64,000 nt of DNA from Pseudomonadota bacterium (GTDB taxonomy: Bacteria > Pseudomonadota > Gammaproteobacteria > Pseudomonadales > JAUIET01), in assembly GCA_039111475.1 (NCBI GenBank), contig JBCCIP010000010.1, forward strand, positions 62,677 to 126,676. The letters are read 5' to 3'. Shown here one piece after another: positions 29,435 through 44,900 of this stretch. Position 1 is the stretch's first letter; every line of letters begins with the position of its first letter. The notes below the pieces were generated by a model. That model saw only the letters and a list, made by a program, of their open reading frames with translations, was not told the DNA's origin and ran no database searches. A program made the position numbers and the translations under genes.

Positions 29435-31163
29435 TACCGATTTGCTTATCACGCTGCTTACCTGCGTCATGCTGATGGCTCTGGTGGGCTGGGTGTCGTA
29501 CGCCAAGACCAAAGGCTCAGTGGATGATAAAGACGGGTATTTTCTCGCAGGCCGAGGCTTAACAGGCACCTTTATTGCAGGCTCTATGTTGCTGACCAAC
29601 CTGTCGGCAGAGCAACTCATCGGTCTCAATGGCTCAGCCTATGGGTACAACTTATCGAGCATGGCCTGGGAGGTTACCGCGGGCTTCGCCACACTAATTA
29701 TGGCGCTGGTATTCTTGCCGCGGTATTTGGCGGGCGCATTCACTACCTTACCCGAATTTCTCAGTGAGCGTTTTGATGATGACGTGCGTCGCGCCACAGC
29801 GGCATTGTTTTTACTGGGGTATGGATTAATTACGATCCCGTCGGTTTTATACTCTGGCGCGCTGGCGGTTCTACGCTTGTTCAATGTGCCGGAGATGCTG
29901 TCAATTGGTCATTCGGAGTCGTTGTTGGTTACCATTCTGGTGATTGGTATGGTCGGCGGCGTTTATGCGGTATTTGGTGGCCTACGTGCGGTAGCGGTGT
30001 CCGACACCTTGAACGGAGCGGGCATGCTTATCATAGGCATCCTGGTGCCATTGTTCGGATTTGCGGCCCTGGGTGACGGCAGTGTTTTGGAGGGTATAAA
30101 AACCCTTACCAGCACCCATAAGGAAAAACTTAACGCCATTGGCACACCGAGTGACCCCACGCCATTTGCGACCATTTTTACTGGCATGATCTTTGCCAAC
30201 CTGTTTTATTGGGGTACCAATCAATACGTTATTCAACGCACCTTGGGCGCAAAGAATCTGGCCGAAGGTCAAAAAGGCGTGATATTGACTGGGTTTCTAA
30301 AGTTAATCGTTCCTTTTCTGATGATGATTCCAGGCGTCATCGCTTTCCATTTGTACGGTCCGGAACTTGCCACTATTGATTTGGCGTATCCGCATTTAGT
30401 GGCTAACGTGATGCCTGTGTATCTGTCAGGCTTTTTCTTGGCGGTGTTATTAGGGGCCGTTTTTAGTTCGTTCAACTCCTTGCTGAACAGCGCCGCCACC
30501 TTGTTTGTGCTTGATATCTACGCGCCGATGAAAAAGAAAGTCATCGATGATCAAACCCTGATTTCGTTGGCGAAGAAAGCCAGTATTGTCATTGCTTTGT
30601 TTTCATTTGTTGCCGCACCGATGTTGCAATACGCGCCGCAGGGCTTGTGGCAAATCATCCGAATATTCACTGGCTTCTACAACATTCCAATCATCGCCAT
30701 TGTGCTGGTCGGTTTGTTTGCACGGCATGTGCCCGCGCAAGCGGCCAAGATTGCGATGGTCTTTCATCTTGTGGCCTACAGTGTTTATCAGCTGTTTGAT
30801 GACGTAATCACCATCCACTTTATCCATATTTACGCCATATTGTTTGTATTGGAGGTGTCGATCATGCTGTTTATTGGGTGGCGTAAACCGAAAGCAACAT
30901 CTTGGCAGGCCAGCAATCGTCGAGCGGTCGATCTGACTCCCTGGCGCTTCGCCTTGCCATCGGCCATATTGTTGTTGGCCAGCATTGCCCAGCTCTACTT
31001 ATTGTTCTCGCCACTCGGCTTGGCGGGTGAAATGGGCAGCGGTTTTTGGATTGCCAGTGCGCTACTGTCCGTGCTGACTGTTGTGCTGTTTTATCTTGCG
31101 CTCACCCGGTGGAATCGTCGATACGAGAATCAACTGGAAAAAATTCATCTAGGAGAATCATGA
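29427..31163 (+). CDS. Sodium:solute symporter (SSS) family transporter.
   Basis: About 13 predicted TM helices and SSS-like conserved stretches (FLAGRGL, GTNQYVIQR). TTG start overlaps the upstream stop. Confidence 0.8.
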   Translation: MTDTDLLITLLTCVMLMALVGWVSYAKTKGSVDDKDGYFLAGRGLTGTFIAGSMLLTNLSAEQLIGLNGSAYGYNLSSMAWEVTAGFATLIMALVFLPRYLAGAFTTLPEFLSERFDDDVRRATAALFLLGYGLITIPSVLYSGALAVLRLFNVPEMLSIGHSESLLVTILVIGMVGGVYAVFGGLRAVAVSDTLNGAGMLIIGILVPLFGFAALGDGSVLEGIKTLTSTHKEKLNAIGTPSDPTPFATIFTGMIFANLFYWGTNQYVIQRTLGAKNLAEGQKGVILTGFLKLIVPFLMMIPGVIAFHLYGPELATIDLAYPHLVANVMPVYLSGFFLAVLLGAVFSSFNSLLNSAATLFVLDIYAPMKKKVIDDQTLISLAKKASIVIALFSFVAAPMLQYAPQGLWQIIRIFTGFYNIPIIAIVLVGLFARHVPAQAAKIAMVFHLVAYSVYQLFDDVITIHFIHIYAILFVLEVSIMLFIGWRKPKATSWQASNRRAVDLTPWRFALPSAILLLASIAQLYLLFSPLGLAGEMGSGFWIASALLSVLTVVLFYLALTRWNRRYENQLEKIHLGES

Positions 31164-32137
31164 ACAACATTGAATTGTCGAAAGGCACATCGCTGCCGCA
31201 GGTTGGTTTGGGTTTCTGGAAAGTCTCTCCAGAAGACGCTGCGCAAACGGTCATAGCGGCAATTGACGCTGGTTATCGCCACCTGGATAGTGCCGCTGAC
31301 TACGGAAACGAAGCCGCGGTTGGTGAGGGCATTGTGCAAGCAATCCGTGCCGGACAGTGCAGCAGAGAAGAGCTATGGGTCACGTCCAAGCTTTGGAATA
31401 CTGACCATAAAGCCGAGCATGTCCGACCGGCGCTTGAAAGAACCCTGCGTGATCTGCAACTGGATTATCTCGACCTTTATATGATTCATTTCCCTATTGC
31501 GCTGGAATATGTAGACCCGGCACAGCGTTATCCGGCCGAGTGGTTTTTTGAACCGTCCGACCCAAAGCCAGCGATGAAGCCGGCCAAAGTGCCCATTTAC
31601 GAAACCTGGCGTGCCATGGAAGAACTGGTGGATGCCGGTTTGGTAAAACACATTGGCGTCTGCAATTTTGGTGTCAGTTTACTGCGTGATCTGCTCAACT
31701 ACGCGCGCATTCCACCAGCCGTATTGCAAGTAGAGTTGCATCCGCGATTATCGCAACAAAAACTGCTGCGGTTTTGTGCTGACAACGACATAGGTGTTAC
31801 AGGCTTCTCACCACTCGGTGCTCTGTCCTATGTGGACATCGACATGGCGCAACGTGATGATTCTGTATTGGAATTGGAAGTCATCCGCACTATCGCCAGC
31901 AGAGCGCAGCGCAGTCCAGCCCAAGTTGTGTTGCGTTGGGCGATTCAGCGCGGCACGGCGATTATCCCTAAAACGACGCGCCCTGAACGCTTACGGGAAA
32001 ACCTGGCGCTGTTCGATTTTGAGCTCAGCGAGGAAGAGATGAAGGCCATTGATTCCCTAAATGAAGACAGACGCTTTAATGACCCCGGTCACTTTTGTGA
32101 GGCCGCGTTCAATACTTTCTTTCCAATCTACGAGTAA
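31160..32137 (+). CDS. Aldo/keto reductase (AKR) family oxidoreductase.
   Basis: AKR motifs (GLGFWK, YRHLDSAADYGNE, IGVCNF). AGGAG Shine-Dalgarno, and the ATG overlaps the upstream stop (ATGA). Confidence 0.85.
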   Translation: MNNIELSKGTSLPQVGLGFWKVSPEDAAQTVIAAIDAGYRHLDSAADYGNEAAVGEGIVQAIRAGQCSREELWVTSKLWNTDHKAEHVRPALERTLRDLQLDYLDLYMIHFPIALEYVDPAQRYPAEWFFEPSDPKPAMKPAKVPIYETWRAMEELVDAGLVKHIGVCNFGVSLLRDLLNYARIPPAVLQVELHPRLSQQKLLRFCADNDIGVTGFSPLGALSYVDIDMAQRDDSVLELEVIRTIASRAQRSPAQVVLRWAIQRGTAIIPKTTRPERLRENLALFDFELSEEEMKAIDSLNEDRRFNDPGHFCEAAFNTFFPIYE

Positions 32138-32145
32138 GTGACACT

Positions 32146-33156
32146 ATGAACTCATCATCTGCCCCCGCTTTTGTAGATTGTGCTGGAATAGAGACGGCAT
32201 TGCCCGCTACTGCCACGGTGTTCAATTACGATGACTTGCAGTTTCCACTCATCATCGAGAAGCAAGGCAGTGGCGCCGCCAGTCATGACGCCTTGCAACA
32301 ATGGATTGACACTAATTCCGAACAAATTGAATGGCATCACGACCAGGTCGGCGCAGTGTTGTTTCGCAATTTTGATCTGTTTTCCAGCGACGATTTCGAT
32401 CGATTCATTAGAGCCTTCGATCTACCAAACTTCACCTACAAGGAATCGCTGTCAAACGCAGTGCGCGTAAATCGTACAGAACGTGTGTTTACTGCAAACG
32501 AGGCGCCGCCAGACGTGAACATTGTGATGCACCACGAAATGGCTCAAACGCCCATTTACCCCAGTCGCCTATTGTTTTTCTGCGAAAAAGCAGCTGAGAT
32601 TGATGGCGCCACACCGCTTTGCCGTTCGGACGTCTTGTTACAACGACTGGAGGAACAAGAGCCAGAATTGGTGCGAAATTGCGAAGCCCATGGTTTGAAA
32701 TACTCCTCTGAAATGCCCGCCGATTCGGACGAATCTTCCGGCCAAGGTCGCTCATGGTCGAGTACGCTTGGGGTCAGCAATATGAAGGAAGCCGAGCGCA
32801 AGCTGGCAGATCTTGGTTACGATTGGGCCTGGATTGACGGCGATTGCTTACGTGTAACCACACCGGTGTTGCCAGCCATTCGCGAATTAGACAGTGGCCG
32901 CCGCACTTTCTTTAACCAGCTTATTTCGGCGGCGTACGGCTGGAAACCGGTCAACGGAAAACCAGCTGTGTGTTACGGCAATGGGGCGGCTATTCCTGAC
33001 GGCTCGCTCAAGGCCATCGCCGACTGCGTTGAAGCGCTCAGTTTCGATTTGGATTGGCAACAAGGCGACGTTGCGTTGATCAACAACTTCCTGGTGATGC
33101 ATGGACGTCGCTCATTTCAGGGAACTCGCCGAGTTTTGGCTTCTTTGGTTGCGTAA
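32146..33156 (+). CDS. TauD/TfdA-like Fe(II)/2-oxoglutarate dioxygenase (clavaminate-synthase-like fold).
   Basis: HHE...H arrangement (MHHEMAQ ... FLVMHGR) and a size of about 336 aa. Confidence 0.6.
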   Translation: MNSSSAPAFVDCAGIETALPATATVFNYDDLQFPLIIEKQGSGAASHDALQQWIDTNSEQIEWHHDQVGAVLFRNFDLFSSDDFDRFIRAFDLPNFTYKESLSNAVRVNRTERVFTANEAPPDVNIVMHHEMAQTPIYPSRLLFFCEKAAEIDGATPLCRSDVLLQRLEEQEPELVRNCEAHGLKYSSEMPADSDESSGQGRSWSSTLGVSNMKEAERKLADLGYDWAWIDGDCLRVTTPVLPAIRELDSGRRTFFNQLISAAYGWKPVNGKPAVCYGNGAAIPDGSLKAIADCVEALSFDLDWQQGDVALINNFLVMHGRRSFQGTRRVLASLVA

Positions 33157-33225: not shown

Positions 33226-34155
33226 CTATCGCAAAAACGCCGTGTGCTCCAACAGCCAATCCCTCACTAATTGAATTTCCGGGCTAGCTTGCAAGCGCTC
33301 ATTTGGAATGAGCAAATAGTGTTTTCGGTCAATAGCAAAACTTTCCTGCAGCGGACGTACTAAATGCCCTAGTGCCAGCTGTTCATGGACAAGGTGCAGC
33401 CAGCCTATGGCAACACCAACCCCACTGATTGCCGACTGCACCAGCAGAGAATAGTTATCCAATGAGTAGCCGCCTTCTTTTACGGCTTCCGTACAACCCA
33501 GTTCTCTGGCCAACGTTTGCCAGTTAATAGGGCCCCAGCTTAGGTCGCGCCAATGCGAGTCTCGTAGGTGTATCAGCTGTTGACTGGCAATGGCATCGGG
33601 ATCGGTGAATTCTGGGTGCTGCTCCAAATAGGCAGCGCTGCACACTGGAAATACTTCTTCCGAAAACAAAAAGTCGGCATGAATACTGGGCTGAGGTTCA
33701 TGGCCTAACACGATGGCCATATCGGCCGAATCGAGTAAGCTTGTGGGGTTTTGCTCGGTGGTGAGTATGTTCAGTTCTATGTTGGGGTACAGGGTTTGCA
33801 GCGAAGACAACTTTGACGCCATAAACTGGGTGGCAAACGCAAGGCGCATTGCCACCGACACCCGGTGTCCTGCTTCCGAAGATTTAAGCCGATCAGCTGT
33901 ATCGGCAATATAACTCAGGCCCATGGAAACGGCTTTAGAAAACTGCTGTCCGGCATCGGTTAGCGAGACAGAACGCCCTTTGCGATTGAATAGCTTTTGG
34001 CCCAGGTATTCTTCCAGCAGATTCACCTGTTTACTGACGGCAGCCTGCGTAACACACAACTCGTCGGCCGCTTTTGAGAAACTCAGATGGCGGGCGGCGG
34101 CTTCAAACGGCTTAAGGCTGCTCATGGGTGGCAGGCGACTATGGGTAGTTTTCAT
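33226..34155 (-). CDS. LysR family transcriptional regulator.
   Basis: HTH FSKAADELCVTQAAVSKQVNLLE. Divergent from the dapA-like operon. Confidence 0.85.
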   Translation of the reverse strand: MKTTHSRLPPMSSLKPFEAAARHLSFSKAADELCVTQAAVSKQVNLLEEYLGQKLFNRKGRSVSLTDAGQQFSKAVSMGLSYIADTADRLKSSEAGHRVSVAMRLAFATQFMASKLSSLQTLYPNIELNILTTEQNPTSLLDSADMAIVLGHEPQPSIHADFLFSEEVFPVCSAAYLEQHPEFTDPDAIASQQLIHLRDSHWRDLSWGPINWQTLARELGCTEAVKEGGYSLDNYSLLVQSAISGVGVAIGWLHLVHEQLALGHLVRPLQESFAIDRKHYLLIPNERLQASPEIQLVRDWLLEHTAFLR

Positions 34156-34308
34156 GGTGAGATGTTACTGTAAAGGTTGACGTTTTAGTATTACTTCAAG
34201 TTATATCATGATGGAGCAAATGTTGTTGGATTTTTTCGGTTCGCAGGCGTACCTTAAGATATATATAAAAAGAGGTCTCGAGCATGAGGCAAATCACGAG
34301 TAAGCCGG

Positions 34309-35271
34309 ATGAGTAAGCTGAAGGGCATTTTCGGAGCAATGTGTACTCCCTTCGACACCAGCGGCGAACACATTGATGACGCGCGCTACACAGAACACAT
34401 TGATGAGCTGATTGAGGCGGGGCTGCACGGGCTTGTTCTTTGCTCCGGTACTGGTGAGTACGCCTATCTGCGCGAAGAAGAAAAAGCACATTTAATAGAG
34501 CTGGGTGCGCGCCACGTGAATGGTCGCGTTCCTACCATTGCGCAAACCACAGCACTCAGTACCGCCGATTGCATTGAGAAATCTCGCCGCGCCCAAGACG
34601 CTGGAGCCAGTGCCGTGATGGTGTTGCCGCCGTATCTGGAAGCACCGGGTGAGCGCGGTATTATCTATCACTACGAAGCGATTGCTAAGGCCATCAGCAT
34701 ACCGGTGGTGATGTACAACGTACCCGAGCAGTCTTGCGTCACTATTACGCCTCAGTTGTATCGCAAGTTACTGGCCATCGAAAACCTGGACTACATCAAA
34801 GACAGCTCAGCTGACTTCACTGCTGTTCAACAACTGATTGAGGTGGGTGGCGGCGTGCTCTGTGGCATTGATGCCCTGGCGCCATATTCTTTAATGGCGG
34901 GTTGCTGTGGAATGATCTGGGGCGCTGCCAACTTCATGCCGCATGAATGCGCGCGGCTATACGATCTGGTGGCTGAAGGCAATCAGTCGGAAGCCTTGGA
35001 ATTGTGGCAAACCATGCTTGCCATTTCGCTGTGGTTTGGCGCCAATCCGCACGGCGTGGACTATTTAACCGGCGTGAAAGCTGCTGCGCGCTTAACCGGG
35101 CGCGATATGGGGCCGTGTCGCAGACCATTGCCGCCGGTACCAGGCCCAGCGCGCCAGGCCATGCGTTTAGCCTTGGCCAAGCTTCCCATTAACGCACCAG
35201 GAAACGAGCGCTTGGTATGGCGTGATTGGGAAGAAGAGCGTGACTGGCTTGTTCAGTCGTATAGAAAGTAA
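34309..35271 (+). CDS. Dihydrodipicolinate synthase/N-acetylneuraminate lyase (DapA) family enzyme. May be a pyrroline-hydroxy-carboxylate deaminase or KDG-aldolase-type enzyme.
   Basis: DapA-family pattern (GLVLCSGTGEYAYL, VMVLPPYL). Confidence 0.8.
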   Translation: MSKLKGIFGAMCTPFDTSGEHIDDARYTEHIDELIEAGLHGLVLCSGTGEYAYLREEEKAHLIELGARHVNGRVPTIAQTTALSTADCIEKSRRAQDAGASAVMVLPPYLEAPGERGIIYHYEAIAKAISIPVVMYNVPEQSCVTITPQLYRKLLAIENLDYIKDSSADFTAVQQLIEVGGGVLCGIDALAPYSLMAGCCGMIWGAANFMPHECARLYDLVAEGNQSEALELWQTMLAISLWFGANPHGVDYLTGVKAAARLTGRDMGPCRRPLPPVPGPARQAMRLALAKLPINAPGNERLVWRDWEEERDWLVQSYRK

Positions 35272-35301
35272 CGCACAGAGATTGACCCGCAGGCAACGAC
35301 T

Positions 35302-36780
35302 ATGAACAACACAACACCTTTGCCCATTAAATTGTCCACACAATGCGTGATAGGTGGCCGCAGCGTGGATGCGCAAAGTGCCGATACTTTCGACACCATC
35401 AACCCGGCTACCGGGGAAGTTCTGGCCAAAATCGCTCGTGGTGATTCTGCTGACGTAGATGCTGCGGTTGCAGCTGCCAGGCGCGCTTTCGACGAAGGTC
35501 CTTGGCCGCGTCTGGCTCCTGCCGAGCGCAAAGTTATTATGCAGCGATTTGCCACTTTGCTTGAAGCCAACCTGGACGAACTAGCGATGATGGAAGCGTT
35601 GGAAGCGGGTAAGCCGATTACCGACTGCATGGAAATTGATTTGCCAGACACCATCAACACGCTGCGTTGGCATGCGGAGGCTGCAGACAAAATTTATGAC
35701 CAGGTATCGCCGTCGTCACCGGGCGTGGTGTCCATGATAGTGCGCGAGCCTATTGGCGTGGTTGGTGTAATTCTCCCCTGGAATTTTCCGCTTATGATGG
35801 CGGCATGGAAACTTGGGCCCATTCTTGCCAGCGGCTGTTGTGCTGTATTGAAACCGGCTGAGCAAACGTCGCTGTCCACTATTCGACTCGCTGAGATCGC
35901 AACGGAAGCAGGTATTCCCGATGGCGTAGTTAATGTGGTGCCAGGCTTTGGCGAAACCGCGGGACGCGCTATTGGCCTGCACAATGATGTGGATTGCGTT
36001 GGCTTTACCGGTTCAACAGAGACCGGCCGACTGTTCTTGAAGTACTCCGCCGATTCAAATTTGAAGCGCGTATTGCTGGAGTGTGGCGGAAAAAACCCGC
36101 TGATTGTAATGGCAGACGCGGAAGACCTGGACAGTGTGGCTGATCACGCCGCCAATTCCATCTTCTGGAACATGGGAGAGAATTGCTCGTCAAATTCTCG
36201 ATTGCTCGTGCACTCATCATTGAAAGATGAATTGATAGAACGACTTTTGGAAAGAACCCACGATTGGACTGTGGGTGACCCACTGGAGGCTGCGACTCGA
36301 ATAGGACCGCTCATTGAACAAGCGCACATGGACAAAGTGCTTGCTGCAATCAACACTGCGAAAGAGCAGGGGGCTACGTTGGTGTGCGGCGGCAACGCAG
36401 TTCGGGTAGACAGTGGTGGGTATTTTGTCGAGCCGACAATATTTGCTGATGTCACACCCGATATGGCATTAGCGCGCGAAGAGGTGTTTGGGCCAGTGTT
36501 GGCCATTCTCAGCTTCGACACACCGGAGCAGGCCATTGCTTTAGCGAATGACTCTGATTACGGGTTAGCCGCGTCAGTATTCACGGCTAATAATAAAACG
36601 GCACACAACGCAGCGCGCGCAATTCGTGCTGGAACCGTTGCGGTTAACTGCTACGGCGAAGGCGATGTGTCCACGCCTTTTGGGGGCTATAAACAGTCGG
36701 GGTTTGGTGGTCGCGACAAGTCACTTGCTGCACATGATCAGTACTGCGAATTGAAAACAATCTGGATCGATTTGTCGTAA
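35302..36780 (+). CDS. NAD(P)+-dependent aldehyde dehydrogenase.
   Basis: ALDH motifs (catalytic-Glu region LECGGKNP, Cys region GENCSSNSRL, GFTGSTETG). Confidence 0.9.
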   Translation: MNNTTPLPIKLSTQCVIGGRSVDAQSADTFDTINPATGEVLAKIARGDSADVDAAVAAARRAFDEGPWPRLAPAERKVIMQRFATLLEANLDELAMMEALEAGKPITDCMEIDLPDTINTLRWHAEAADKIYDQVSPSSPGVVSMIVREPIGVVGVILPWNFPLMMAAWKLGPILASGCCAVLKPAEQTSLSTIRLAEIATEAGIPDGVVNVVPGFGETAGRAIGLHNDVDCVGFTGSTETGRLFLKYSADSNLKRVLLECGGKNPLIVMADAEDLDSVADHAANSIFWNMGENCSSNSRLLVHSSLKDELIERLLERTHDWTVGDPLEAATRIGPLIEQAHMDKVLAAINTAKEQGATLVCGGNAVRVDSGGYFVEPTIFADVTPDMALAREEVFGPVLAILSFDTPEQAIALANDSDYGLAASVFTANNKTAHNAARAIRAGTVAVNCYGEGDVSTPFGGYKQSGFGGRDKSLAAHDQYCELKTIWIDLS

Positions 36781-36784
36781 CACG

Positions 36785-38101
36785 ATGAAACTGTCGATAC
36801 TTCCGCATAACGATAACAATAACGGTTGGCTGCGAATTCTGCCCGAGCTACCCTTGGCCAATGTGTTACGAGGCGAGCATTCTTTTGACGTAGCTATTGT
36901 CGGAGCAGGGTTTACTGGCTTGGCCGCCGCTCGCAGGCTGGGCGAGTTATGTCCAGATGAGCGCATCGCCCTGATTGACGCTGGAAGAATTGGCAACAAC
37001 GCCGCCGGTCGATGTTCGGGGTTTGCTATTGATCAGGCACACAATATTCGCGCGAAAAGCTTTGCTGATGAGCTGGCGAACGAACGATTTCAGCTGCAAC
37101 TCAATAGGCACGGTCAACAAGCGTTGCGTGATGCTGTTGAGCAACACGCCATTGATTGTGATTGGCAAGAAGCGGGCAAGATTCACGGCGCTGGTACTGT
37201 GAAAGGTCAGCAGCTGCTGCGTGATTTAAGCAAGAACATTGAAGCGCTGGGAAATTCCTGTGAGTTTTATGATGCCGAGAAAATGCAGAGTGTCACTGGC
37301 CTGAGATTTTATCGTGAGGGCTTGTATACGCCTGGTACACAGCAAATGCAACCAGCCGCGCTGGTGCGAGGCTTGGCAAAGACCTTACCTGAAAACGTTG
37401 CCGTGTATGAAGATAGCTTGATTACCGATGTGGAATACGGTGATTCACATCGCTTGATCAGTTCAGATGGTGAATTGCAGGCGAACACTCTGGTGCTGGC
37501 AAATAACAGTTTTGCAGCGGCGTTTGGCTTTTATGAAAAACATCTGATACCGCTGCCCACGTTTGCCAGCATGACGCGTGAACTAACAGCTTCTGAATTA
37601 GATACTTTGGGTGGTGAACAAAGCTGGGGCATTGTGCCGGCGCACCCTTTCGGGTCAACGGTGAGAAGGTTAAACAGCAATCGCTTATTGGTTCGCAATA
37701 TCTACGCCTACTCGCATAAGCACAACCCCACCGAGTCGCAGCGGCAGTGGGCCAGAGGAAAACACATTAAGTCATTCAAAGATCGTTTTCCCATGTTGGA
37801 TAAGGTGGAGTTTGAATACAGTTGGGGCGGTACATTGTGTTTGTCCGATAACGGTAAGCCGGTCTTTGGTGAAGTAGCACCCAGAGTTTTTGCCTCACTC
37901 TGCCACCAGGGTGTTGGTATTGCCAGAGGCACCAGTTGTGGAAAGCTCATTGCCGAAGAAGTGGCAGGCGAAGAGTCTGATCTTCTGAGTGCAATGCGTG
38001 CAGAGGGCAGACCGAACAAGAGTTTTCCTAGCTGGATGATGCGCATAGGTGCGCCGCTGAATCTTGCCAATCGACGCCGAATGGCCGGCGGGGAGTTGTA
38101 G
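36785..38101 (+). CDS. FAD-dependent oxidoreductase of the DAO family (D-amino-acid / sarcosine / N-methyl-amino-acid oxidase-like).
   Basis: N-terminal GxGxxG dinucleotide fold (VAIVGAGFTGLAAA) and a length of about 438 aa. Confidence 0.8.
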   Translation: MKLSILPHNDNNNGWLRILPELPLANVLRGEHSFDVAIVGAGFTGLAAARRLGELCPDERIALIDAGRIGNNAAGRCSGFAIDQAHNIRAKSFADELANERFQLQLNRHGQQALRDAVEQHAIDCDWQEAGKIHGAGTVKGQQLLRDLSKNIEALGNSCEFYDAEKMQSVTGLRFYREGLYTPGTQQMQPAALVRGLAKTLPENVAVYEDSLITDVEYGDSHRLISSDGELQANTLVLANNSFAAAFGFYEKHLIPLPTFASMTRELTASELDTLGGEQSWGIVPAHPFGSTVRRLNSNRLLVRNIYAYSHKHNPTESQRQWARGKHIKSFKDRFPMLDKVEFEYSWGGTLCLSDNGKPVFGEVAPRVFASLCHQGVGIARGTSCGKLIAEEVAGEESDLLSAMRAEGRPNKSFPSWMMRIGAPLNLANRRRMAGGEL

Positions 38102-38102
38102 C

Positions 38103-38870
38103 ATGGCAACGTTGGCATTGTCTGATAAAACGGTAGTAATCACCGGTGCAACGTCCGGTATTGGCGCTGCAACCGCACGCGTGATGGCAGCTCAAGGCGC
38201 GCGTTTGCTGCTACTTGGTCGAAATGCAGAGCGCGCTAAGCGTGTGCAAAAAACCGTTGTTGACGAGGGTGGTGTTGCGGAAACCTTCATTGGAGATGTG
38301 AGCGAATCAACGACTGCGGAGGCAGCGGTTAAGCAAGCGCTGCAGAGTTTTGGCCATCTAAATGCGTTGGTAAACGCAGCCGGTGTCATTTATCGAGGCA
38401 ATGCCGTACAGACCAGCGACCAGCAATGGCGCGACAGTATGTCTGCCAATGTGGATGGCAGTTTTTTCATGTCTCGTGCTGCGGTGAGCGCAATGAAGCA
38501 TGGCGGCAGTATCGTCAATATTGCCTCTACCTGCGGCTTGGTCGGGGCCAAAGATCTTACCGCGTACTGCGTCAGCAAGGGAGCGATTGTGCAACTCACG
38601 CGCGCAATGGCGCTGGATCACGCTGATGAAAACATTCGAGTGAACTCAGTTTGCCCGGGGGCAATTGACACGCCCATGTTGGTATCAGGTCACGAGCGCA
38701 GCGGTGCTTCCGCCGAGCAAGTACTAGCAAACAATTTAGCGGAGATTCCTCAGGGGCGCATACCTGGCCCGGAAGAGGTTGCCGAATTGATTGCGTTTCT
38801 CTGCAGTGATGTCAGTTCTCATATTACCGGCACCAACATACCGATTGATGGCGGGTACACAGCGCAATGA
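38103..38870 (+). CDS. SDR family oxidoreductase.
   Basis: TGATSGIGAATA motif, NAAG, and catalytic YCVSK. The ATG overlaps the upstream stop. Confidence 0.85.
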   Translation: MATLALSDKTVVITGATSGIGAATARVMAAQGARLLLLGRNAERAKRVQKTVVDEGGVAETFIGDVSESTTAEAAVKQALQSFGHLNALVNAAGVIYRGNAVQTSDQQWRDSMSANVDGSFFMSRAAVSAMKHGGSIVNIASTCGLVGAKDLTAYCVSKGAIVQLTRAMALDHADENIRVNSVCPGAIDTPMLVSGHERSGASAEQVLANNLAEIPQGRIPGPEEVAELIAFLCSDVSSHITGTNIPIDGGYTAQ

Positions 38871-39667
38871 GCACGTCTTTACGCAATAAGGTTGCCGTTG
38901 TAACCGGTGGTTCACAGGGCATAGGACGCGGAATTTCTGAGCGTTTAGTGGCTGCGGGGGCCCACGTTGTTGTTGCCGACTTGAAAAAAGCTGATGACTT
39001 TCAGCAATGGCGGAATGCGAGCGACGATCAGGTGAGCTATCTGAAGACCGACGTCACCTCTGGCGAATCGGTACAGTCATTGGCTGAGCAAATCGAGGCG
39101 CAGCAAGGGCGCGTGGATGTACTGGTGAACAATGCAGGCATCATGTTTGAGAAAAGTCTCGAAGAGCAAACAGAAGCCGACTGGGACTTAATGATGGCCA
39201 TCAACGTTAAAGGCCCTATGTTGATGAGCAAATTTTTGTTGCCGCTGCTGCGCTATGGCGCAGCGAAAAACGGTAGTGCAGCTGTAGTAAATATAGGGTC
39301 TATTGAAGGGTTTGCAGTTAACCCCAAGCACACGGCTTACAGCGCGTCCAAAGGCGCGGTACACGGGTTTACAGCGGCACTTGCAGTGGATCTCGGCTTG
39401 GACAAAATCCGCGTTAACGCGATAGCGCCTGGTTGGATCGATACCGACTTAAATCGAGCCTATGTCGAATCGGTTGGCGATGTTGAGCTGGCCAAACAAG
39501 AGTTGGCGAAATTACACCCTATGGGTTCTATTGGCGAACCCTCAGATGTTGGCGATGTTGTTGTATGGCTTGCCAGCGATGAATCGCGTTTCGTGAATGG
39601 GCAGGTCATTACTGTTGATGGCGCGCGCACCAGGAAACTGTCCTTACCTCCTATTTTTCAAACTTAA
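38867..39667 (+). CDS. SDR family oxidoreductase.
   Basis: TGGSQGIGRGIS motif, NNAG, and catalytic YSASK. The start overlaps the upstream stop. Confidence 0.85.
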   Translation: MSTSLRNKVAVVTGGSQGIGRGISERLVAAGAHVVVADLKKADDFQQWRNASDDQVSYLKTDVTSGESVQSLAEQIEAQQGRVDVLVNNAGIMFEKSLEEQTEADWDLMMAINVKGPMLMSKFLLPLLRYGAAKNGSAAVVNIGSIEGFAVNPKHTAYSASKGAVHGFTAALAVDLGLDKIRVNAIAPGWIDTDLNRAYVESVGDVELAKQELAKLHPMGSIGEPSDVGDVVVWLASDESRFVNGQVITVDGARTRKLSLPPIFQT

Positions 39668-39692
39668 CCTTCCAACCTAAAAGGCATCCACT

Positions 39693-41237
39693 ATGAGTGA
39701 AGCGGCGATATCCGGTAGCTCCCAGGGCAGAAGAGGTCGCTCGGCACGTCGCAACGCGCGTCTGGCAACCAGTTTTGATTCACTCCCTGCGTTGGAGAGA
39801 GGGCTGCCGTATCTGGATTTGATGACACCTGCCCAACTCGAGAAAATGCACGATGCGACCATGCGCATACTTGAGAATAAGGGAATAGAGTTTCGAGACG
39901 ACGAATCGGCCGAGCTTTGGAGAGCAGCAGGAGCAACAGTCAACGGCCATCATATTCGCATTCCCCGTGAATTGCTGATGCAGTTAATCAGTACGGTTCC
40001 TAGCAGCTACACCATGCACGCTCGTAACCCGGAGCGTACCGTGAAGTTAGGCGACGGTCATACCTGCTTCGTGCCGGCGTATGGTTCGCCCATGATCATA
40101 GACATGGACGGAAAACGCCGAAACGCCACGCTGGAAGACTTCAACAATTTTGCGAAGCTTGCTTATATGGCACCTGCCATGCACATGACGGGCGGAGTAT
40201 TGGTAGAGCCCATGGATGTGCCGGTACCCAAACGTCATTTGCACATGATGTACAGTTTGTTGAAGTATTCTGACAAGCCGTTTATGGGCATGGTGCTCGG
40301 TCGCGACAAAGCCATCGACAGTATGGAAATGGTTAAGCTTGTATTCGGTGAAGAGTTCCTTGAAACACATACGGTAATGACATCACTGGCTAATGGCAAT
40401 TCGCCGCTAGTGTGGGACGAAACCATGCTGGATGCCGCGAAAGTCTATGCACGCCACAATCAGGCGATGTTGTTTTCACCGTTCGCGTTGTGCGGCGCAA
40501 GCACGCCTGCCAGTGTTGTTGGCACCATGGCGCAGATAAGTGCTGAGGCCTTGGCTGGCGTGGCATTTTCGCAGCTGTGCAGAAAGGGCGCACCGGCTGT
40601 TTACGGACAATGGTTGGCAACAGTGTCAATGCAAAGTGGGGCACCCATGGCCGGCACACCCGAAATTTGCCACATTAACATGTTAATGGGGCAGTTGGCC
40701 CGGTTTTACAAACTGCCCATGCGCTGCAGCGGTATGTGCACCAGTTCTAAAGTGGTAGATACACAGGCTGGCTATGAAGCTGGTAGGAATATGTACGGTG
40801 TTTTGATGTCGGGGGCGAACTTTGTTTTGTCTACCGCAGGTTATATGGAGGGGGCCATGGCACAGAGCTACGCCAAATACGCGATTGACATCGAGCAGAT
40901 GGAGTTGTTTTATCGCCTGGGGAAAGGCCCAGATTTCGACGGGCTTGGTGGTGCGTTAGACGCCATTGATGACGTAGAAATTGGGCATCACTATTTGGGC
41001 AGTGCGCACACGCTTGAGAATTTCCAAACCGCATTTTCCATGCCGAATTTGATGGACCACAACAGTTACGAGCAGTGGGCGGCCGAAGGGGGTAAAGACG
41101 CGAACCAGCGCGGCATAGAGAAGATCAAAAAGATGCTTGGCGATTATCAAGAACCTGCGCTTGATTCGGCTGTTGATGACGCCTTATTGGAATTTATTGC
41201 AAGGCGTGAAGCTGAGATTGGCGATCGAACGCTCTAG
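39693..41237 (+). CDS. MttB-superfamily (trimethylamine methyltransferase-like) corrinoid-dependent methyltransferase of the non-pyrrolysine type. Candidate betaine or quaternary-amine demethylase.
   Basis: About 514 aa, an N-terminal Arg-rich region (RRGRSARRNARL) and overall MttB/MtgB-like sequence character. There is no in-frame amber codon. Confidence 0.75.
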   Translation: MSEAAISGSSQGRRGRSARRNARLATSFDSLPALERGLPYLDLMTPAQLEKMHDATMRILENKGIEFRDDESAELWRAAGATVNGHHIRIPRELLMQLISTVPSSYTMHARNPERTVKLGDGHTCFVPAYGSPMIIDMDGKRRNATLEDFNNFAKLAYMAPAMHMTGGVLVEPMDVPVPKRHLHMMYSLLKYSDKPFMGMVLGRDKAIDSMEMVKLVFGEEFLETHTVMTSLANGNSPLVWDETMLDAAKVYARHNQAMLFSPFALCGASTPASVVGTMAQISAEALAGVAFSQLCRKGAPAVYGQWLATVSMQSGAPMAGTPEICHINMLMGQLARFYKLPMRCSGMCTSSKVVDTQAGYEAGRNMYGVLMSGANFVLSTAGYMEGAMAQSYAKYAIDIEQMELFYRLGKGPDFDGLGGALDAIDDVEIGHHYLGSAHTLENFQTAFSMPNLMDHNSYEQWAAEGGKDANQRGIEKIKKMLGDYQEPALDSAVDDALLEFIARREAEIGDRTL

Positions 41238-42187
41238 TAAGCCTCAGTAAACGCTTTGATAAACGTATCGAGCTCATCGCGCGGCAGTTCGTTAATTCCT
41301 GCCGCCGCAGTACGACCACCACCCGTAGGAAATTGCATGCATAGCTCCGCAGCGCCCTGTCTGTTGCTTAGCGGCGCGCGAACGCTGACCAGATAATTGC
41401 CGTTGTCTTTCTCTGTAACAACCGCATGTGCGCGATTGGGATTTTCGATTGCCAGGTCGTTACCGTACACGCCGCGCACTCTTAACGCCCATGCTGCATT
41501 GGGCAGTTGAAATACGGCGGTGGCTTCCTCACAGTGTATGGGCTTAAGCTCCGCTGCTTTAGCCATATCTTCTGCATAGCCAATACTGAGCTTCTGATAA
41601 TCCGGTGAGCTGGCGATAAACTCCAGGGCGCTGTCTGCCTCGAACAGAGTTTGGTAAAGATCTTTGGGGTTAAAATGCAGATCGTCGATGGATGAACCAT
41701 AACCGTTGTAGTTAACGTAAATGCCAAGCGTCTCCAGAGATTCAAGGTCAACGTCAGACAGGTTCAAAGGTTGAGCTAGCTTTCGAGCGGTTTTTTTGAA
41801 GTTATCACCAAATGCACCCACCACAGCCCAGTCTGAAAATTGACCTTTCAAATGACCATTGATCAATACGGCAGTGCACACCTCTGCACCTTCATTGATG
41901 ATTGCGTGAAGGTTTGCATGCTCAGGAATATCGCCGGCGAAATGATGATCTACATAAAACACAGATGCACCGTGTTCCAGAACACGCTGCAAGTCCTCTT
42001 TGTTTTTGTCCATCGAAACATCCAGCACAGTGATCTGATCCCCAGACGTGGCGTCTACTTTCGCTAACAGATTGATATCACGTTTTACACCTGAGACAAG
42101 AACCGACTCTCTCGGCTCCGCTTTTCGCAACTGGATTAACGCGCAAATACCATCGGCATCTCCGTTGAATACATCGTAATTTGGCAT
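41234..42187 (-). CDS. DHH/DHHA1 family phosphoesterase-like protein.
   Basis: DHH motif (YVDHHFAGD) and a C-terminal GGG(R) motif (FPTGGGRTAAAG). Confidence 0.55.
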   Translation of the reverse strand: MPNYDVFNGDADGICALIQLRKAEPRESVLVSGVKRDINLLAKVDATSGDQITVLDVSMDKNKEDLQRVLEHGASVFYVDHHFAGDIPEHANLHAIINEGAEVCTAVLINGHLKGQFSDWAVVGAFGDNFKKTARKLAQPLNLSDVDLESLETLGIYVNYNGYGSSIDDLHFNPKDLYQTLFEADSALEFIASSPDYQKLSIGYAEDMAKAAELKPIHCEEATAVFQLPNAAWALRVRGVYGNDLAIENPNRAHAVVTEKDNGNYLVSVRAPLSNRQGAAELCMQFPTGGGRTAAAGINELPRDELDTFIKAFTEAY

Positions 42188-42305: not shown

Positions 42306-42713
42306 TCATTCGGCAACGTGCAAACTCACGCTGGTTGCACCGCCCATGCGTGCATAATCCAGCACGGGTACAAAAACAGAGGTTGGCGTTGTTTGCTCTG
42401 TACTGACCACAACAGACCGCGCTGGGTCCTGAGCGAGTAGTTGCTCTACATTGGAGCGCACAGACAACTTATCGATGCGTCTTTTCGCCAACCAAATTTC
42501 GCCACTTGCCGTGATGTTGAGCACAATCGGTACAGCGTCAGTGCTACTGGCAGGGCCATATTCCGGGCGTTGCACGTCCAGGCCCTTTTCCATCACGAAT
42601 GTTGCGGTCACCACAAAGAAGATCAGCATGATAAACACCACATCCAGCATGGGAGTGAGTTCAATATCATCGCCGTCATCAACGAGACGTTTTGAGGCAA
42701 TTCGACTGCTCAT
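42306..42713 (-). CDS. exbD: ExbD/TolR family biopolymer transport protein.
   Basis: Conserved N-terminus (IELTPMLDVVFIMLIFFVV), a single TM helix and a size of about 135 aa. Confidence 0.85.
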   Translation of the reverse strand: MSSRIASKRLVDDGDDIELTPMLDVVFIMLIFFVVTATFVMEKGLDVQRPEYGPASSTDAVPIVLNITASGEIWLAKRRIDKLSVRSNVEQLLAQDPARSVVVSTEQTTPTSVFVPVLDYARMGGATSVSLHVAE

Positions 42714-42717
42714 AGAT

Positions 42718-43341
42718 TCACTCCGCTATCTGAAATCGAACACGTGTGGTTACGCCGGCTTTACGAACGGCTTCGCCATTATCAGCAATTTGTGGTCGGT
42801 ACTTCCATTTTTGTACAGCGCGCACTGCGGCGCGGTCAAAAACATTGGCAGGCTCTGCGCCGATTACGCGCACATCTTCGGTAGCACCTGTTACGTCAAT
42901 GGTGAACATCACGTCAACGTAACCGCTAAGGCCTCTTCGTATCGCGATTCCAGGGTAAATAGGTTGTGAGCGAAGGTAAGGGATGGGTTCGCCAGGGGGG
43001 AGGGCCGTCAATGTTGGCCCAGCAGCAGTGGGGTCAACGGGCGGAATGAGAATTGCTTCGGCAGTAGGGCCAACGGCGAATTCCCTTGGTGCTGGTGGCG
43101 CAGTGGGTGGTGCTGCAACTGGCTCTGGCGGTAGCACCTCATCAATTTGAGTTTCTATCACTGTATCATCCGTCATTACAACGGTCGGCATAGGTCGGAC
43201 ATCTCGCGGTACGTACTGATAATCATGCCGAATCAGCAGCAACATGAATAAAAGCAGCGCAAACGTCGCCATGGCTGCAAACATGGCCGATGAAGCCGTG
43301 CGGTAAATATGATCAGTACTTAACAATCTAGAGGTGGTCAT
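42718..43341 (-). CDS. tonB: TonB family energy transducer.
   Basis: N-terminal TM anchor, a Pro-rich spacer (PEPVAAPPTAPPAP) and a C-terminal TonB domain (VDVMFTIDVTG...RAVQKWKYRP). Confidence 0.75.
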   Translation of the reverse strand: MTTSRLLSTDHIYRTASSAMFAAMATFALLLFMLLLIRHDYQYVPRDVRPMPTVVMTDDTVIETQIDEVLPPEPVAAPPTAPPAPREFAVGPTAEAILIPPVDPTAAGPTLTALPPGEPIPYLRSQPIYPGIAIRRGLSGYVDVMFTIDVTGATEDVRVIGAEPANVFDRAAVRAVQKWKYRPQIADNGEAVRKAGVTTRVRFQIAE

Positions 43342-44887
43342 AGCGAACTCCTTGGGCGATTAGAACTTCTGATGAATTATGTTCAGGATTTTCTTCGGGT
43401 GTTGCATTTTGATCGGTATCAGTAAGGCGAAACACATAGCGATTCTCCACGTCTTGCACCTTCACCGCCGTGCCGTTTACCTGGTGCGGCGCATATCGTG
43501 ATTTCCGGATGGCGTTTAGTGCGGCGCGATCAAATATTCGGCCTGGTTTAGAGTGAACCACTCTGGCGTTGGCTACGGTTCCATCAGTCTGTATGTCGAA
43601 TAACACATCGACAAAACCCTCAATGTTGCGGCTTATCGCTCTTAATGGATAAATGGGCATTACAGTAACCGTGGGCATAAAGCCACTGCGACTAATAGTG
43701 GGTGTGGTAGCTGCCGTTAGCTGGCCAGCTAAAATGGCAGGCTCCGGGCCCTGTACTACAACCCTATGCGCAACCGGGCGGGCTGCGGGCTCTGGTAGCC
43801 ACTGCATGCTTCGCGCAGGCGGGTGCGGGAAAGGTCTACTGGGCTCGCCAATTGCTGGCATAGGTGGGAGTTCGTAAATCACAGGCATATACGGCGATGC
43901 GCTCAGACCCATGTTGTCTGGCAATCCTTTTAACTCTGTAGGCTGAACAATTGGCACGGCTCGCAGCACAGTAAAAGGAAGCAGCAATAAAAGAAAAAAG
44001 ACCACGCTTTCAGTGAGACCGAAGCCGTCGTAATAATGTCTTGGTGTTCTTTGTGTTAAGGCGTGAACTCGGTCGGCAAGGCCAGGTCCAAGCATTGCTG
44101 CCCAGAGAGGCATTTTGGTTTTGTGTTCTATTTTGCCCTGTTGTCTGGCGTAGCCTAGCAATACGCCTGCGTAACTCGGTGCCTGTGTACCCGCTAACAC
44201 CACTTCATCGTCTGCTGCAATTTCTGCCTGGTTGCGAAGACCGCGTGCACAAGCATGGACAAGTGGGTTGAACCAGAAAAATGCAACAATCAGTCTAGTG
44301 ATTAACTGGATGACCCAGTCGTGCCGACGAATATGTGCCAATTCGTGCTGCAACGCAGCGTTGATAACGTCGCTCGATTGCGTGAGGAATTCACGCGGTA
44401 AAATAACTTTCGCTGATAATGCCCCGATTGTTATTGGACAGCGCAGGTCGTTCAGCAGCCAAAAACTTATTTTCTGATTGCCTGCAGAAAGCTGTCGCTG
44501 AACTGCAAGCGGCAACGCCGCAACGTTGAATTCAGTGGCATATTTTAACTGACGCCGTAATGCAGCGTAGTCCAGCAAAATCCTTAGCAGACCAACCAAA
44601 ACTCCAACGACATAAATACTGCCTATAACTAGCGCCATATTCGAAGTGACTGGTAACCAACGAGCGGCCGGATCCGGTACCAGTTCTGAAGTAGTCGGCA
44701 GTACCTGAAGCGCTAACTTCGGTGCCATTTCAAGCATGGGCAGTATTAACAGCACTAGCAGCGCAGCGGCCAGCTTGTTGTGCTTAACAGCAGCGGTGTT
44801 GCGCGTGGACCGTTGAACAAACAACAATACCAAGGCCAGAAGCACCGAGCCTTTTACTATTGTATTTAATGCGATATCAAACAGCAT
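43328..44887 (-). CDS. BlaR1/MecR1-like M56 family membrane metalloprotease fused to a C-terminal TonB-like domain.
   Basis: Polytopic N-terminus, zinc motif HELAHIRRHDW (HExxH), a Pro-rich linker, and a C-terminal TonB_C-like domain (VDVLFDIQTDG...NAIRKSRYAP). Confidence 0.8.
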   Translation of the reverse strand: MLFDIALNTIVKGSVLLALVLLFVQRSTRNTAAVKHNKLAAALLVLLILPMLEMAPKLALQVLPTTSELVPDPAARWLPVTSNMALVIGSIYVVGVLVGLLRILLDYAALRRQLKYATEFNVAALPLAVQRQLSAGNQKISFWLLNDLRCPITIGALSAKVILPREFLTQSSDVINAALQHELAHIRRHDWVIQLITRLIVAFFWFNPLVHACARGLRNQAEIAADDEVVLAGTQAPSYAGVLLGYARQQGKIEHKTKMPLWAAMLGPGLADRVHALTQRTPRHYYDGFGLTESVVFFLLLLLPFTVLRAVPIVQPTELKGLPDNMGLSASPYMPVIYELPPMPAIGEPSRPFPHPPARSMQWLPEPAARPVAHRVVVQGPEPAILAGQLTAATTPTISRSGFMPTVTVMPIYPLRAISRNIEGFVDVLFDIQTDGTVANARVVHSKPGRIFDRAALNAIRKSRYAPHQVNGTAVKVQDVENRYVFRLTDTDQNATPEENPEHNSSEVLIAQGVRYDHL

Positions 44888-44900
44888 ATGCGTCTCAATC

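Follow-up and report, generated by a model that had tools for sequence, protein, structure and literature searches.

A MttB-family methyltransferase gene joined to hydroxyproline-type enzymes in a probable operon for the catabolism of a proline-derived betaine

The canonical hydroxyproline pathway (LhpA-C, LhpG/Hyp) consists of 4-hydroxyproline 2-epimerase, D-hydroxyproline dehydrogenase, pyrroline-4-hydroxy-2-carboxylate (Pyr4H2C) deaminase and 2-oxoglutarate semialdehyde dehydrogenase. The betaine of proline is reportedly the substrate of MtpB, a non-pyrrolysine (non-Pyl) member of the MttB superfamily from the Gram-positive acetogen Eubacterium limosum: In work attributed to Picking et al. 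in 2019, the enzyme is said to demethylate proline betaine to N-methylproline and to feed the Wood-Ljungdahl pathway via MtqC and MtqA, with no linked carbon-skeleton pathway. Here we describe a locus that joins a MttB gene to a set of hydroxyproline-type enzymes, at positions 33226-41237 of a 64,000-nucleotide stretch (hereafter the window) of contig JBCCIP010000010.1 from a Pseudomonadota bacterium (assembly GCA_039111475.1), where the gene for a LysR regulator stands divergent to a tightly packed operon of six plus-strand genes. We consider it probable (roughly 0.6) that LysR controls this cassette and that its genes break down a betaine derived from proline, 4-hydroxyproline betaine (betonicine or its 2-epimer) being the likeliest, through steps that we infer below.

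What the cassette has in common with the hydroxyproline pathway is the trio of FAD oxidoreductase, dihydrodipicolinate synthase (DHDPS)-family enzyme and aldehyde dehydrogenase (ALDH). The pathway has a proline-racemase-family epimerase, whereas the window and the cassette loci of its relatives are without one and add a MttB gene and two genes for short-chain dehydrogenases/reductases (SDRs); and where the pathway is served by amino-acid transporters, the relatives of the cassette carry betaine-type ABC systems. The lack of a proline-racemase-type epimerase had been noticed in a preliminary description of the window, and it is borne out among all open reading frames (ORFs) of at least 150 aa in the window, which likewise include no gene for HpbD, ProX, a B12-binding protein or a pterin-binding methyltransferase. 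With MtpB, the likeness would lie in the chemistry, that is, in the demethylation of a proline-derived betaine.

The Hpb pathway follows the same downstream logic, in which an FAD oxidoreductase, a DHDPS-family enzyme and an ALDH lead to 2-oxoglutarate under a LysR-type regulator. Its first demethylation is performed by the Rieske system HpbBC and its second by the flavoenzyme HpbA, whereas the cassette has neither of these and carries a MttB gene. The enolase-superfamily enzyme HpbD of Rhodobacter sphaeroides (rsHpbD) racemises proline betaine and epimerises hydroxyproline betaine, with its best kcat/Km on trans-hydroxyproline betaine, and the transporter genes hpbHIJ are induced by proline betaine (PMC3950512). 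The window differs from the R. sphaeroides locus in having neither HpbD nor HpbHIJ (there are no homologues of ProX or ProW in its 64 kb), and its DapA-like and DAO-family proteins are merely 30-37% identical to their counterparts there.

A further system, the cobalamin-dependent demethylation of glycine betaine by MtgBCD(E), known from Sinorhizobium meliloti and from aerobic bacteria of the sea, employs a methyltransferase of the PF06253 superfamily, to which the MttB of the window also belongs (PMC12478193; PMC13080624). In MtgB of Desulfitobacterium hafniense, mutagenesis and a liganded crystal structure showed that Y97 and F356 hold the quaternary nitrogen of glycine betaine (Picking et al. 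2026, PMC13080624), while R312 and H348 hold its carboxylate, R312 being kept in all characterised acidic-betaine enzymes (PMC13080624). Both systems occur in an aerobic host, as judged for the window from its gene content: Because it encodes several O2-dependent enzymes, its host is taken to be an aerobe. The MttB protein of the window is identical to one from a metagenome-assembled genome (MAG) of an uncultured member of the Pseudomonadota, the group to which the host, a marine bacterium, belongs. The two systems are set apart by their genomic company, in that the MttB of the cassette is linked to a hydroxyproline-type skeleton module and not to dimethylglycine or sarcosine genes.

The ORF map and Pfam matches of the window agree with the seven genes and family assignments of the preliminary description. 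The LysR gene (33226-34155, minus strand; HTH_1 1e-21, LysR_substrate 8e-28) encodes a GcvA-like protein that scores under the cut-off of that NCBIfam model, and it is followed by a divergent intergenic region of 153 bp (34156-34308) that is presumed, from the layout only, to contain the LysR operator and the promoters. On the plus strand there follow genes for a DapA/DHDPS-family protein (34309-35271; PF00701, 3e-56), an ALDH (35302-36780; PF00171, 5e-175), a DAO-family FAD oxidoreductase (36785-38101; PF01266, 8e-42), two SDRs, which we call SDR1 (38103-38870; adh_short_C2, 1e-62) and SDR2 (38867-39667; adh_short_C2, 4e-61), and the non-Pyl MttB (39693-41237; PF06253, 4e-194, 645.7 bits, spanning positions 2-500 of the 500-position profile). 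The intergenic distances are +30, +4, +1, -4 and +25 bp, the negative value reflecting a 4-bp overlap of the SDR2 start with the SDR1 stop. The value of +1 assumes that SDR1 starts at 38103; the ORF list places its start at a TTG codon at 38064, and the true start is likely the ATG at 38103, which is preceded by a GGGGAG ribosome-binding site. Because the spacing is so tight, the six plus-strand genes fit a single transcript. A scan of the operon region for the sigma-70 consensus returned nothing convincing, with counts of promoters and terminators no higher than expected from shuffled sequence, and no protein of the operon reaches a curated NCBIfam equivalog. At the far end, a minus-strand ORF of 317 aa (41234-42187) converges on the MttB gene, their stop regions overlapping by 4 bp; it has a weak DHH-domain match (5e-05, under the cut-off) and no NCBIfam match, and was seen only on contigs of the same organism.

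That these genes belong together is indicated by their linkage in other genomes. Relatives of the MttB were collected in a scan that kept one genome per species and gave 55 loci (the L-numbers used below are locus labels), and the window proteins were compared with these loci by tblastn, a gene being counted as linked if it lay within 10 kb of the MttB gene. Among loci with a MttB at least 59% identical to that of the window, 35 could be assessed, and in 33 of them homologues of the DapA-like protein, the DAO and the SDRs, and usually of the ALDH, are linked to MttB, with 45-85% identity to the proteins of the window. Where MttB is at most 53% identical, not one of 16 loci has them (Fisher's exact p = 2e-11, the loci being phylogenetically related). 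Cassette-bearing taxa include Arenicellales, Granulosicoccaceae, Paracoccaceae, Rhodospirillales and single-cell genomes, from both Gamma- and Alphaproteobacteria, and the nearest MttB relatives of the window come from Arenicellales (including Ca. Poriferihabitaceae) and Granulosicoccaceae. Gene order is the same in Gammaproteobacteria and Paracoccaceae, and shuffled yet still linked in other Alphaproteobacteria. Since the ALDH is missing from five loci (L013, L014, L019, L021 and L024) and the SDRs from one (L007), the minimal core is MttB, DAO and DapA-like protein. Orthologues of the LysR (50-66% identity) adjoin the cassette in L002, L006, L007, L013-15 and L023. The conserved unit is exactly 33226-41237, as no other gene of the window recurs at any of the approximately 35 related loci.

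The neighbours of the cassette in these relatives point to a betaine. In two complete gammaproteobacterial contigs (MttB 82-84% identical), an OpuAC-type ABC transporter, identified from the annotations, directly precedes the cassette; the transporters flanking gammaproteobacterial cassettes are 61-68% identical to HpbH, HpbI and HpbJ of R. sphaeroides, and the orthologues in alphaproteobacterial loci are 48-63% identical. Taken together, HpbHIJ orthologues (48-68%) flank the cassette in L002, L003/L008, L013-15, L021, L022 and L045. After the cassette of L002 there are a zinc alcohol dehydrogenase gene and two genes of the mandelate racemase/muconate lactonizing enzyme (MR/MLE) group of the enolase superfamily, the second of which encodes a protein 71% identical to rsHpbD, and nine further loci of the same MttB clade contain MR/MLE genes whose products are 57-67% identical to rsHpbD (10 distinct loci in all, at 57-71%). 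The product of one such gene, which stands beside MttB in L060, matches structures of Paracoccus denitrificans HpbD (4E8G, 4IZG, 4J1O; 531 bits) and of Pelagibaca bermudensis HpbD (2PMQ, 4H2H; 420 bits). A second MR/MLE subfamily also accompanies the cassette or the MttB clade, and hints at further substrates of the hydroxyproline type: The L002 member (12719-13843) has its best PDB matches in 2PS2 and 2PCE and finds its nearest NCBIfam model in cis-3-hydroxy-L-proline dehydratase (320 bits, cut-off 500), and the L068 member (4239-5354) was placed in this subfamily solely because its identity to rsHpbD is as low as 34%.

A census of neighbours, in which Pfam was run on 132 flanking ORFs of 21 loci after spurious antisense ORFs of GC-rich loci had been removed by their GC content at third codon positions (GC3), gives the same picture. 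The commonest neighbours are components of betaine-type ABC transporters (6 each), followed by MR_MLE (5), and among the 132 ORFs no gene of the Rieske, Oxidored_FMN, B12-binding or pterin-binding kind recurs. The cassette itself contains no Rieske or Oxidored_FMN gene. A KshA-like Rieske oxygenase of 321 aa is encoded in the window 7 kb from the cassette (48665-49630, minus strand), and nothing in this position connects it with the demethylation of a betaine; its gene adjoins those for the [2Fe-2S] and molybdopterin-binding subunits of an enzyme of the aldehyde oxidase/xanthine dehydrogenase type (48665-52652).

The preliminary description had called the MttB a non-pyrrolysine homologue, and rightly so: Its ORF of 514 codons is uninterrupted, with no in-frame UAG, and it scores 296 bits against the Pyl-type model TIGR02369, whose cut-off is 525, and for these reasons we assign it to the non-Pyl members. 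Its best matches in the PDB are the Sinorhizobium meliloti MtgB 4YYC (510 bits, 48% identity) and D. hafniense MtgB (2QNE, 9YCE; 384 bits, 40% identity), and it matches the Pyl-type MttB 7XCL with merely 126 bits. In a HMMER alignment, residues Y97, R312, H348 and F356 of MtgB correspond to Y130, R344, S380 and A388 of the window MttB, so that two of the four glycine-betaine residues are replaced (H348 by serine, F356 by alanine), and the tyrosine and the acid-binding arginine are retained.

When this pocket pattern was compared over an alignment of 173 MttB sequences, it sorted with gene context. All 160 sequences that are at least 59% identical to the window MttB, that of Mesorhizobium amorphae included, have the invariant pattern Y-R-S-A; the clade at 53% identity or less has Y-R-H-G, as does 4YYC; RSP_4008, from the R. 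sphaeroides hpb locus, has T-R-H-G; and D. hafniense MtgB has Y-R-H-F. Ten alignment columns separate the Y-R-S-A from the Y-R-H-G clade, and several of these are close to the pocket (346, 380, 384 and 388 in window numbering). At 100% identity to 4YYC, the MttB encoded in the chromosomal cluster of S. meliloti has the pattern Y-R-H-G, and its cluster also encodes a cobalamin-binding protein, a methyl-tetrahydrofolate (methyl-THF):cobalamin methyltransferase, an ASKHA activase and bmt (PMC12478193). In the lower-identity Y-R-H-G clade, eight loci have a homologue of S. meliloti MtgC (61-81%) next to MttB, and five of these also contain homologues of MtgD (60-65%) and RamA (59-60%). None of the three has a homologue in the window or in any Y-R-S-A locus compared.

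By residue pattern and gene context there are, then, two kinds of MttB: a core MtgB, whose corrinoid partners are encoded close by, and an accessory clade, whose genes go with a catabolic cassette. In aerobic marine bacteria, several MttB paralogues have been proposed to share one unlinked MtgC/MtgD core, and adjacency of the corrinoid partner is not obligatory in aerobes (PMC12478193). The preliminary description had remarked that no corrinoid partner lies next to this MttB, an observation that extends to the whole window and to the Y-R-S-A loci; since the partner genes are unlinked throughout the clade, as the shared-core model has it, the "missing" partner is expected and not anomalous. Several alphaproteobacterial loci contain a gene with a homocysteine S-methyltransferase domain (PF02574), about 29% identical to S. 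meliloti Bmt/MtgE, at 7-8 kb from the MttB gene (L019 17219-18175, L045 17922-18878, and also L021 and L022).

We propose, from residue pattern and context, that the Y-R-S-A MttB is a betaine:corrinoid methyltransferase for a proline-derived betaine. Glycine betaine was rejected as its substrate, on the differing pocket pattern and the absence of the MtgC/MtgD linkage that marks the 4YYC clade. One might still suppose that the enzyme serves glycine betaine in the manner of MtgB, or an acyclic betaine such as carnitine or gamma-butyrobetaine, and that the five genes upstream, although on the same transcript, belong to a separate pathway for hydroxyproline or an amine. The conserved acid-binding arginine would suit such substrates, as would the position of the ALDH in the aminoaldehyde group (PuuC, KauB, BADH). 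However, the replacements of H348 and F356 affect two of the four residues needed to bind glycine betaine; the Y-R-S-A clade is never found beside MtgC/MtgD, dimethylglycine or sarcosine genes, unlike the Y-R-H-G clade; the linkage of MttB to the cassette persists across classes and gene orders; and HpbD and HpbHIJ adjoin the cassette in relatives. An acyclic substrate is therefore unlikely. The proposal of the preliminary description, that the cluster serves the catabolism of a (hydroxy)proline betaine or N-methyl amino acid, gains from these same observations and from the R. sphaeroides hpb locus, in which the same families recur.

That locus lies on a plasmid of Cereibacter (Rhodobacter) sphaeroides 2.4.1 (L065) and comprises genes for a MttB-family protein, the enolase HpbD and two SDRs, then on the opposite strand for an FAD oxidoreductase, an ALDH, a DHDPS-family protein and a GntR regulator, and then for ProV, ProW and ProX. 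A gene count that starts at ProX gives the locus tags of Kumar et al., in which hpbJ/hpbI/hpbH are RSP_3998-4000 and hpbD is RSP_4007 (PMC3950512); the enolase scores 671 bits with P. denitrificans HpbD (pdHpbD), and the identity of rsHpbD and pdHpbD was checked against PDB entries 4E8G, 4IZG, 4J1O and 2PMQ. All six families of the cassette are thus also present in a studied hpb locus. Its proteins are identical to those of the window at 56% for the ALDH, 49% for MttB, about 44-52% for SDR2 (against RSP_4005), 37% for the DAO, 37% for SDR1 and 30% for the DapA-like protein. The homologues of the downstream trio (FAD oxidoreductase, DHDPS-family enzyme and ALDH) are co-linear, and their patterns of NCBIfam matches agree. 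The MttB gene RSP_4008 and the SDR genes RSP_4005 and RSP_4006 (tags by gene count) stand beside hpbD, at L065 13917-18150. In the paper that described the locus, RSP_4008 and the two SDRs are given no role, and the word "methyltransferase" is absent from its text (PMC3950512).

Other plasmids show parts of the same assembly in different arrangements. Plasmid pM0123d of M. amorphae carries LysR, ProVWX and MttB (64%), near to which are a proline-racemase-family gene, FAD oxidoreductase, DHDPS-like, ALDH and GntR genes and an SDR pair (51-53%). A plasmid of Mesorhizobium sp. NZP2077 has a cluster with a MttB of the Y-R-S-A clade (62.5%), ProVWX, an SDR pair, an MR/MLE gene and a proline-racemase-family gene; these two are the Mesorhizobium plasmids in which a gene of the latter family occurs near the Y-R-S-A clade. 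In both (L064 15623-21182; L068 12362-17682) the SDR pair lies beside genes of the hydantoinase/oxoprolinase family and for a prolidase/creatinase-fold "Xaa-Pro peptidase", to which the M. amorphae neighbourhood adds a 4-oxalocrotonate tautomerase gene; these neighbours may offer a clue to the function of the SDRs, for example in lactam chemistry.

The closest MttB of all (87%), in L005 (10001-13965), has no cassette; it is followed convergently by the gene for a 665-aa flavoenzyme with Oxidored_FMN and Pyr_redox_2 domains, and a molybdopterin oxidoreductase gene lies upstream. The N-methylproline demethylases StcD and HpbA have this same domain layout. The NZP2077 plasmid encodes a copy of the flavoenzyme at 66% identity, and a gene of this HpbA-like architecture adjoins the Y-R-S-A clade only in L005 and L068.

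Plasmid A of Sinorhizobium americanum (L066) and pAt1D1609a of Agrobacterium tumefaciens (L067) carry genes for a LysR, an FAD oxidoreductase, a DHDPS-like protein, an SDR and an ALDH along with an 815-aa flavoenzyme resembling dimethylglycine dehydrogenase (DMGDH), to which the former adds a glycine-betaine-type ABC transporter and the latter electron-transfer flavoprotein (ETF) genes and purU. The skeleton module of these rhizobial clusters is the same as that of the cassette (DAO 40%, DapA-like protein 41-45% and ALDH 42% identical), but the demethylase is a flavoenzyme of the DMGDH/GcvT type, with ETF and purU nearby, and not a MttB, and the SDRs are non-orthologous (25-30%). To judge from their composition, these modules probably act on N-methylated hydroxyproline-like compounds. 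The existence of both MttB-linked and DMGDH-linked copies implies that the skeleton module repeatedly partners N-demethylases.

Within this module, the DapA-like protein was rejected as a true DapA of lysine biosynthesis, because it scores 175 bits against the dapA equivalog TIGR00674 (cut-off 206) and DHDPS-specific residues are replaced. In E. coli DapA numbering of the catalytic positions T44, Y107, Y133, R138 and K161, the Schiff-base Lys161 (in IKDSS) and Tyr133 (in YNVP) are kept, and T44, Y107 and R138 have become G, L and Q. By these residues it is a class I aldolase-fold Schiff-base enzyme. It shares 40% identity and common motifs with the DHDPS-like gene product of the M. amorphae hydroxyproline cluster, and a search of the PDB returned genuine DHDPS enzymes at about 125 bits, which carry no information on its substrate. 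We propose that it is a Pyr4H2C-type deaminase/dehydratase that would yield 2-oxoglutarate semialdehyde. The ALDH belongs to the PuuC/KauB/AldA group, with PuuC and BADH as its nearest NCBIfam models (under their cut-offs) and 7UYY as its best PDB match (621 bits); it is 56-57% identical to two ALDHs of the same group, one encoded in the R. sphaeroides hpb locus and the other in the hydroxyproline cluster of M. amorphae, and it is proposed to be an NAD(P)-dependent 2-oxoglutarate semialdehyde dehydrogenase.

The DapA-like protein also has weak NCBIfam matches to KdgD and NanA, and these raise the question of whether the genes could make up a sugar-acid or uronate pathway, with a KDG-type aldolase or KdgD-type dehydratase, a 2-oxoglutarate semialdehyde ALDH and SDR sugar dehydrogenases, in which the MttB would be incidental. 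Combinations of DapA-family, SDR and ALDH enzymes occur in non-phosphorylative sugar-acid routes. Such a pathway could be fed by the operon upstream, which includes genes for a YidK-like sodium:solute symporter (SSS), a GFO/IDH/MocA protein and an aldo-keto reductase (AKR). Against this, that operon does not accompany the cassette in any of about 35 loci, the recurrent neighbours of the cassette are betaine-type ABC transporters and HpbD and not sugar transporters or dehydratases, and the DAO and the MttB would be left without a role, all of which makes a sugar-acid pathway very improbable.

The upstream genes (24746-33156) form a separate operon with a LysR of its own (24746-25627, minus strand), after which come a TonB-dependent receptor (TBDR), the GFO/IDH/MocA oxidoreductase, the YidK-like SSS, a DkgA-like AKR and a TauD-family dioxygenase for which no NCBIfam model was matched. 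The suggestion of the preliminary description that this SSS is the uptake system of the cassette was rejected, since the TBDR-GFO-SSS-AKR-TauD set is an operon apart and recurs in no related locus.

The remaining enzymes of the cassette are less readily placed by their relatives. The DAO has only weak NCBIfam matches, to AmaA (L-pipecolate oxidase) and Phn_aa_oxid (aminophosphonate oxidoreductase) at about 135 bits, a pattern also given by the FAD enzymes of the R. sphaeroides hpb and M. amorphae hydroxyproline loci, to which it is 35-37% identical; a sequence search of the PDB found no relative below 1e-10. It is proposed to oxidise N-methyl-hydroxyproline or hydroxyproline. SDR1 has orthologues at 53-72% identity in cassette loci and at 53% in M. 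amorphae; SDR2 is 45-74% identical across cassette loci and 51% identical to an M. amorphae SDR. The PDB relatives of SDR2 are merely generic SDRs (about 155 bits), and the NCBIfam relatives of both proteins are generic too. The earlier suggestion that the SDR pair is a redox stand-in for the 2-epimerase does not survive, because the SDRs co-occur with HpbD.

A route through the cassette can be drawn as follows. MttB would move one N-methyl group of the betaine to the Co(I) corrinoid of an MtgC-type protein, with this partner, the methyl-corrinoid:tetrahydrofolate methyltransferase MtgD and a reductive activase being encoded elsewhere and common to other MttB paralogues; the products would be N-methyl-4-hydroxyproline and methyl-THF, and the step would replace the O2-dependent Rieske demethylase HpbBC. 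The DAO would then oxidise N-methyl-hydroxyproline, either stripping the second methyl group or oxidising the ring C-N bond, and the DapA-like enzyme would dehydrate and deaminate the resulting 4-hydroxy-pyrroline-2-carboxylate-type product to 2-oxoglutarate semialdehyde, which the ALDH would oxidise to 2-oxoglutarate. The SDR pair would be conserved accessories that possibly act on the 4-hydroxyl via a 4-oxo intermediate, and neither uptake (HpbHIJ) nor 2-epimerisation (HpbD) is encoded in the window.

A hydroxylated skeleton is favoured because proline betaine, whose route runs via proline and PutA (PMC3950512), needs just PutA and not a pair of DapA-like protein and ALDH. The same logic might nonetheless apply to another cyclic or hydroxylated betaine, such as proline betaine, 3-hydroxyproline betaine or pipecolate betaine (homostachydrine), in which case specificity for hydroxyproline betaine would belong to the MttB clade found in the R. 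sphaeroides hpb locus. Several observations lend this some weight: RSP_4008 has a different pocket (T-R-H-G, at 49% identity), the second MR/MLE subfamily of L002 and Mesorhizobium comes nearest to the cis-3-hydroxy-L-proline dehydratase model, the nearest named model of the DAO is, weakly, L-pipecolate oxidase, and HpbD racemises proline betaine too (PMC3950512). Set against them are the DapA-like and ALDH pair, for which proline betaine has no need, the 56% identity of the cassette ALDH to that of the hpb locus, and the adjoining HpbD orthologues, which are 57-71% identical to an rsHpbD whose best substrate is trans-hydroxyproline betaine. We regard a different cyclic betaine as a minority prospect, clearly behind hydroxyproline betaine.

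Several points weigh against our assignment of the operon to hydroxyproline betaine. HpbD, a betaine transporter and a corrinoid partner are all missing from the window, and the DapA-like protein and DAO share only 30-40% identity with the corresponding proteins of hpb and hydroxyproline loci, which makes them at best putative orthologues. The canonical pathway uses no SDR, yet two are conserved in the cassette, which is also without a second demethylase of the HpbA type. The R. sphaeroides hpb-locus MttB belongs to a different clade (T-R-H-G, 49%), which makes any pairing of clades with betaines tentative, and kinship among the loci means that the linkage statistic overstates their independence. 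Finally, a P. denitrificans double mutant in the Rieske genes fails to grow on proline betaine (PMC3950512).

Given the divergence of the DAO and the DapA-like protein, the SDR pair, the absence of HpbA and the other clade in R. sphaeroides, the substrate may be a related one, or the route may be modified so as to release methylamine. Under the latter, which we put forward tentatively, the cassette would be an oxygen-sparing branch that takes off just one methyl group as a C1 unit: MttB would pass this methyl group to THF by way of a shared B12 protein, the DAO would oxidise the ring C-N bond, the DapA-like enzyme would free methylamine and not ammonia, and the SDRs would interconvert C4 epimers via 4-oxo intermediates, with RSP_4005, RSP_4006 and RSP_4008 as an overlooked parallel B12 route. 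Release of methylamine from an N-methylated ring would explain the absence of an HpbA-type second demethylase.

If the operon does act on hydroxyproline betaine, the Hpb pathway would gain a cobalamin-dependent alternative to its oxygenase step, in which the methyl group is conserved as methyl-THF and not lost as formaldehyde, and B12 dependence would reach another abundant osmolyte. The unassigned genes of the R. sphaeroides hpb locus would acquire a role, and Arenicellales-type bacteria, some of them sponge-associated, a betaine as a source of carbon and nitrogen. Aerobic marine and soil Proteobacteria have up to seven MttB paralogues, whose substrates have been left open (PMC12478193); one large clade of MttB now has a sequence signature (Y-R-S-A), a conserved operon context and a concrete substrate prediction. 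The component families are already known, and what is new is the combination of MttB with a hydroxyproline-type cassette, together with the signature; among the papers searched, none ties MttB homologues to hydroxyproline betaine, betonicine, stachydrine or hpb loci in aerobes.

The rest of the window has a varied content. Beyond the MttB gene, the minus strand at 42306-45293 encodes ExbD, TonB, a BlaR1-type M56 peptidase fused to a TonB C-terminal domain and a BlaI-type repressor, an unusual combination of a sensor with TonB. What may be a stress or defence module occupies 53562-62884, with DUF2170, PspA/IM30, two ORFs without a Pfam match, a 1739-aa protein with DUF3686 ("ATPase involved in DNA repair", 625 bits), DUF7902 and AAA_5. 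At the opposite end, the genes at 93-11628 are those of lipid and ester metabolism: a WS/DGAT wax-ester synthase, a beta-lactamase-fold esterase, SDRs, a fatty-acid hydroxylase, an arylesterase, a carboxylesterase and TetR regulators.

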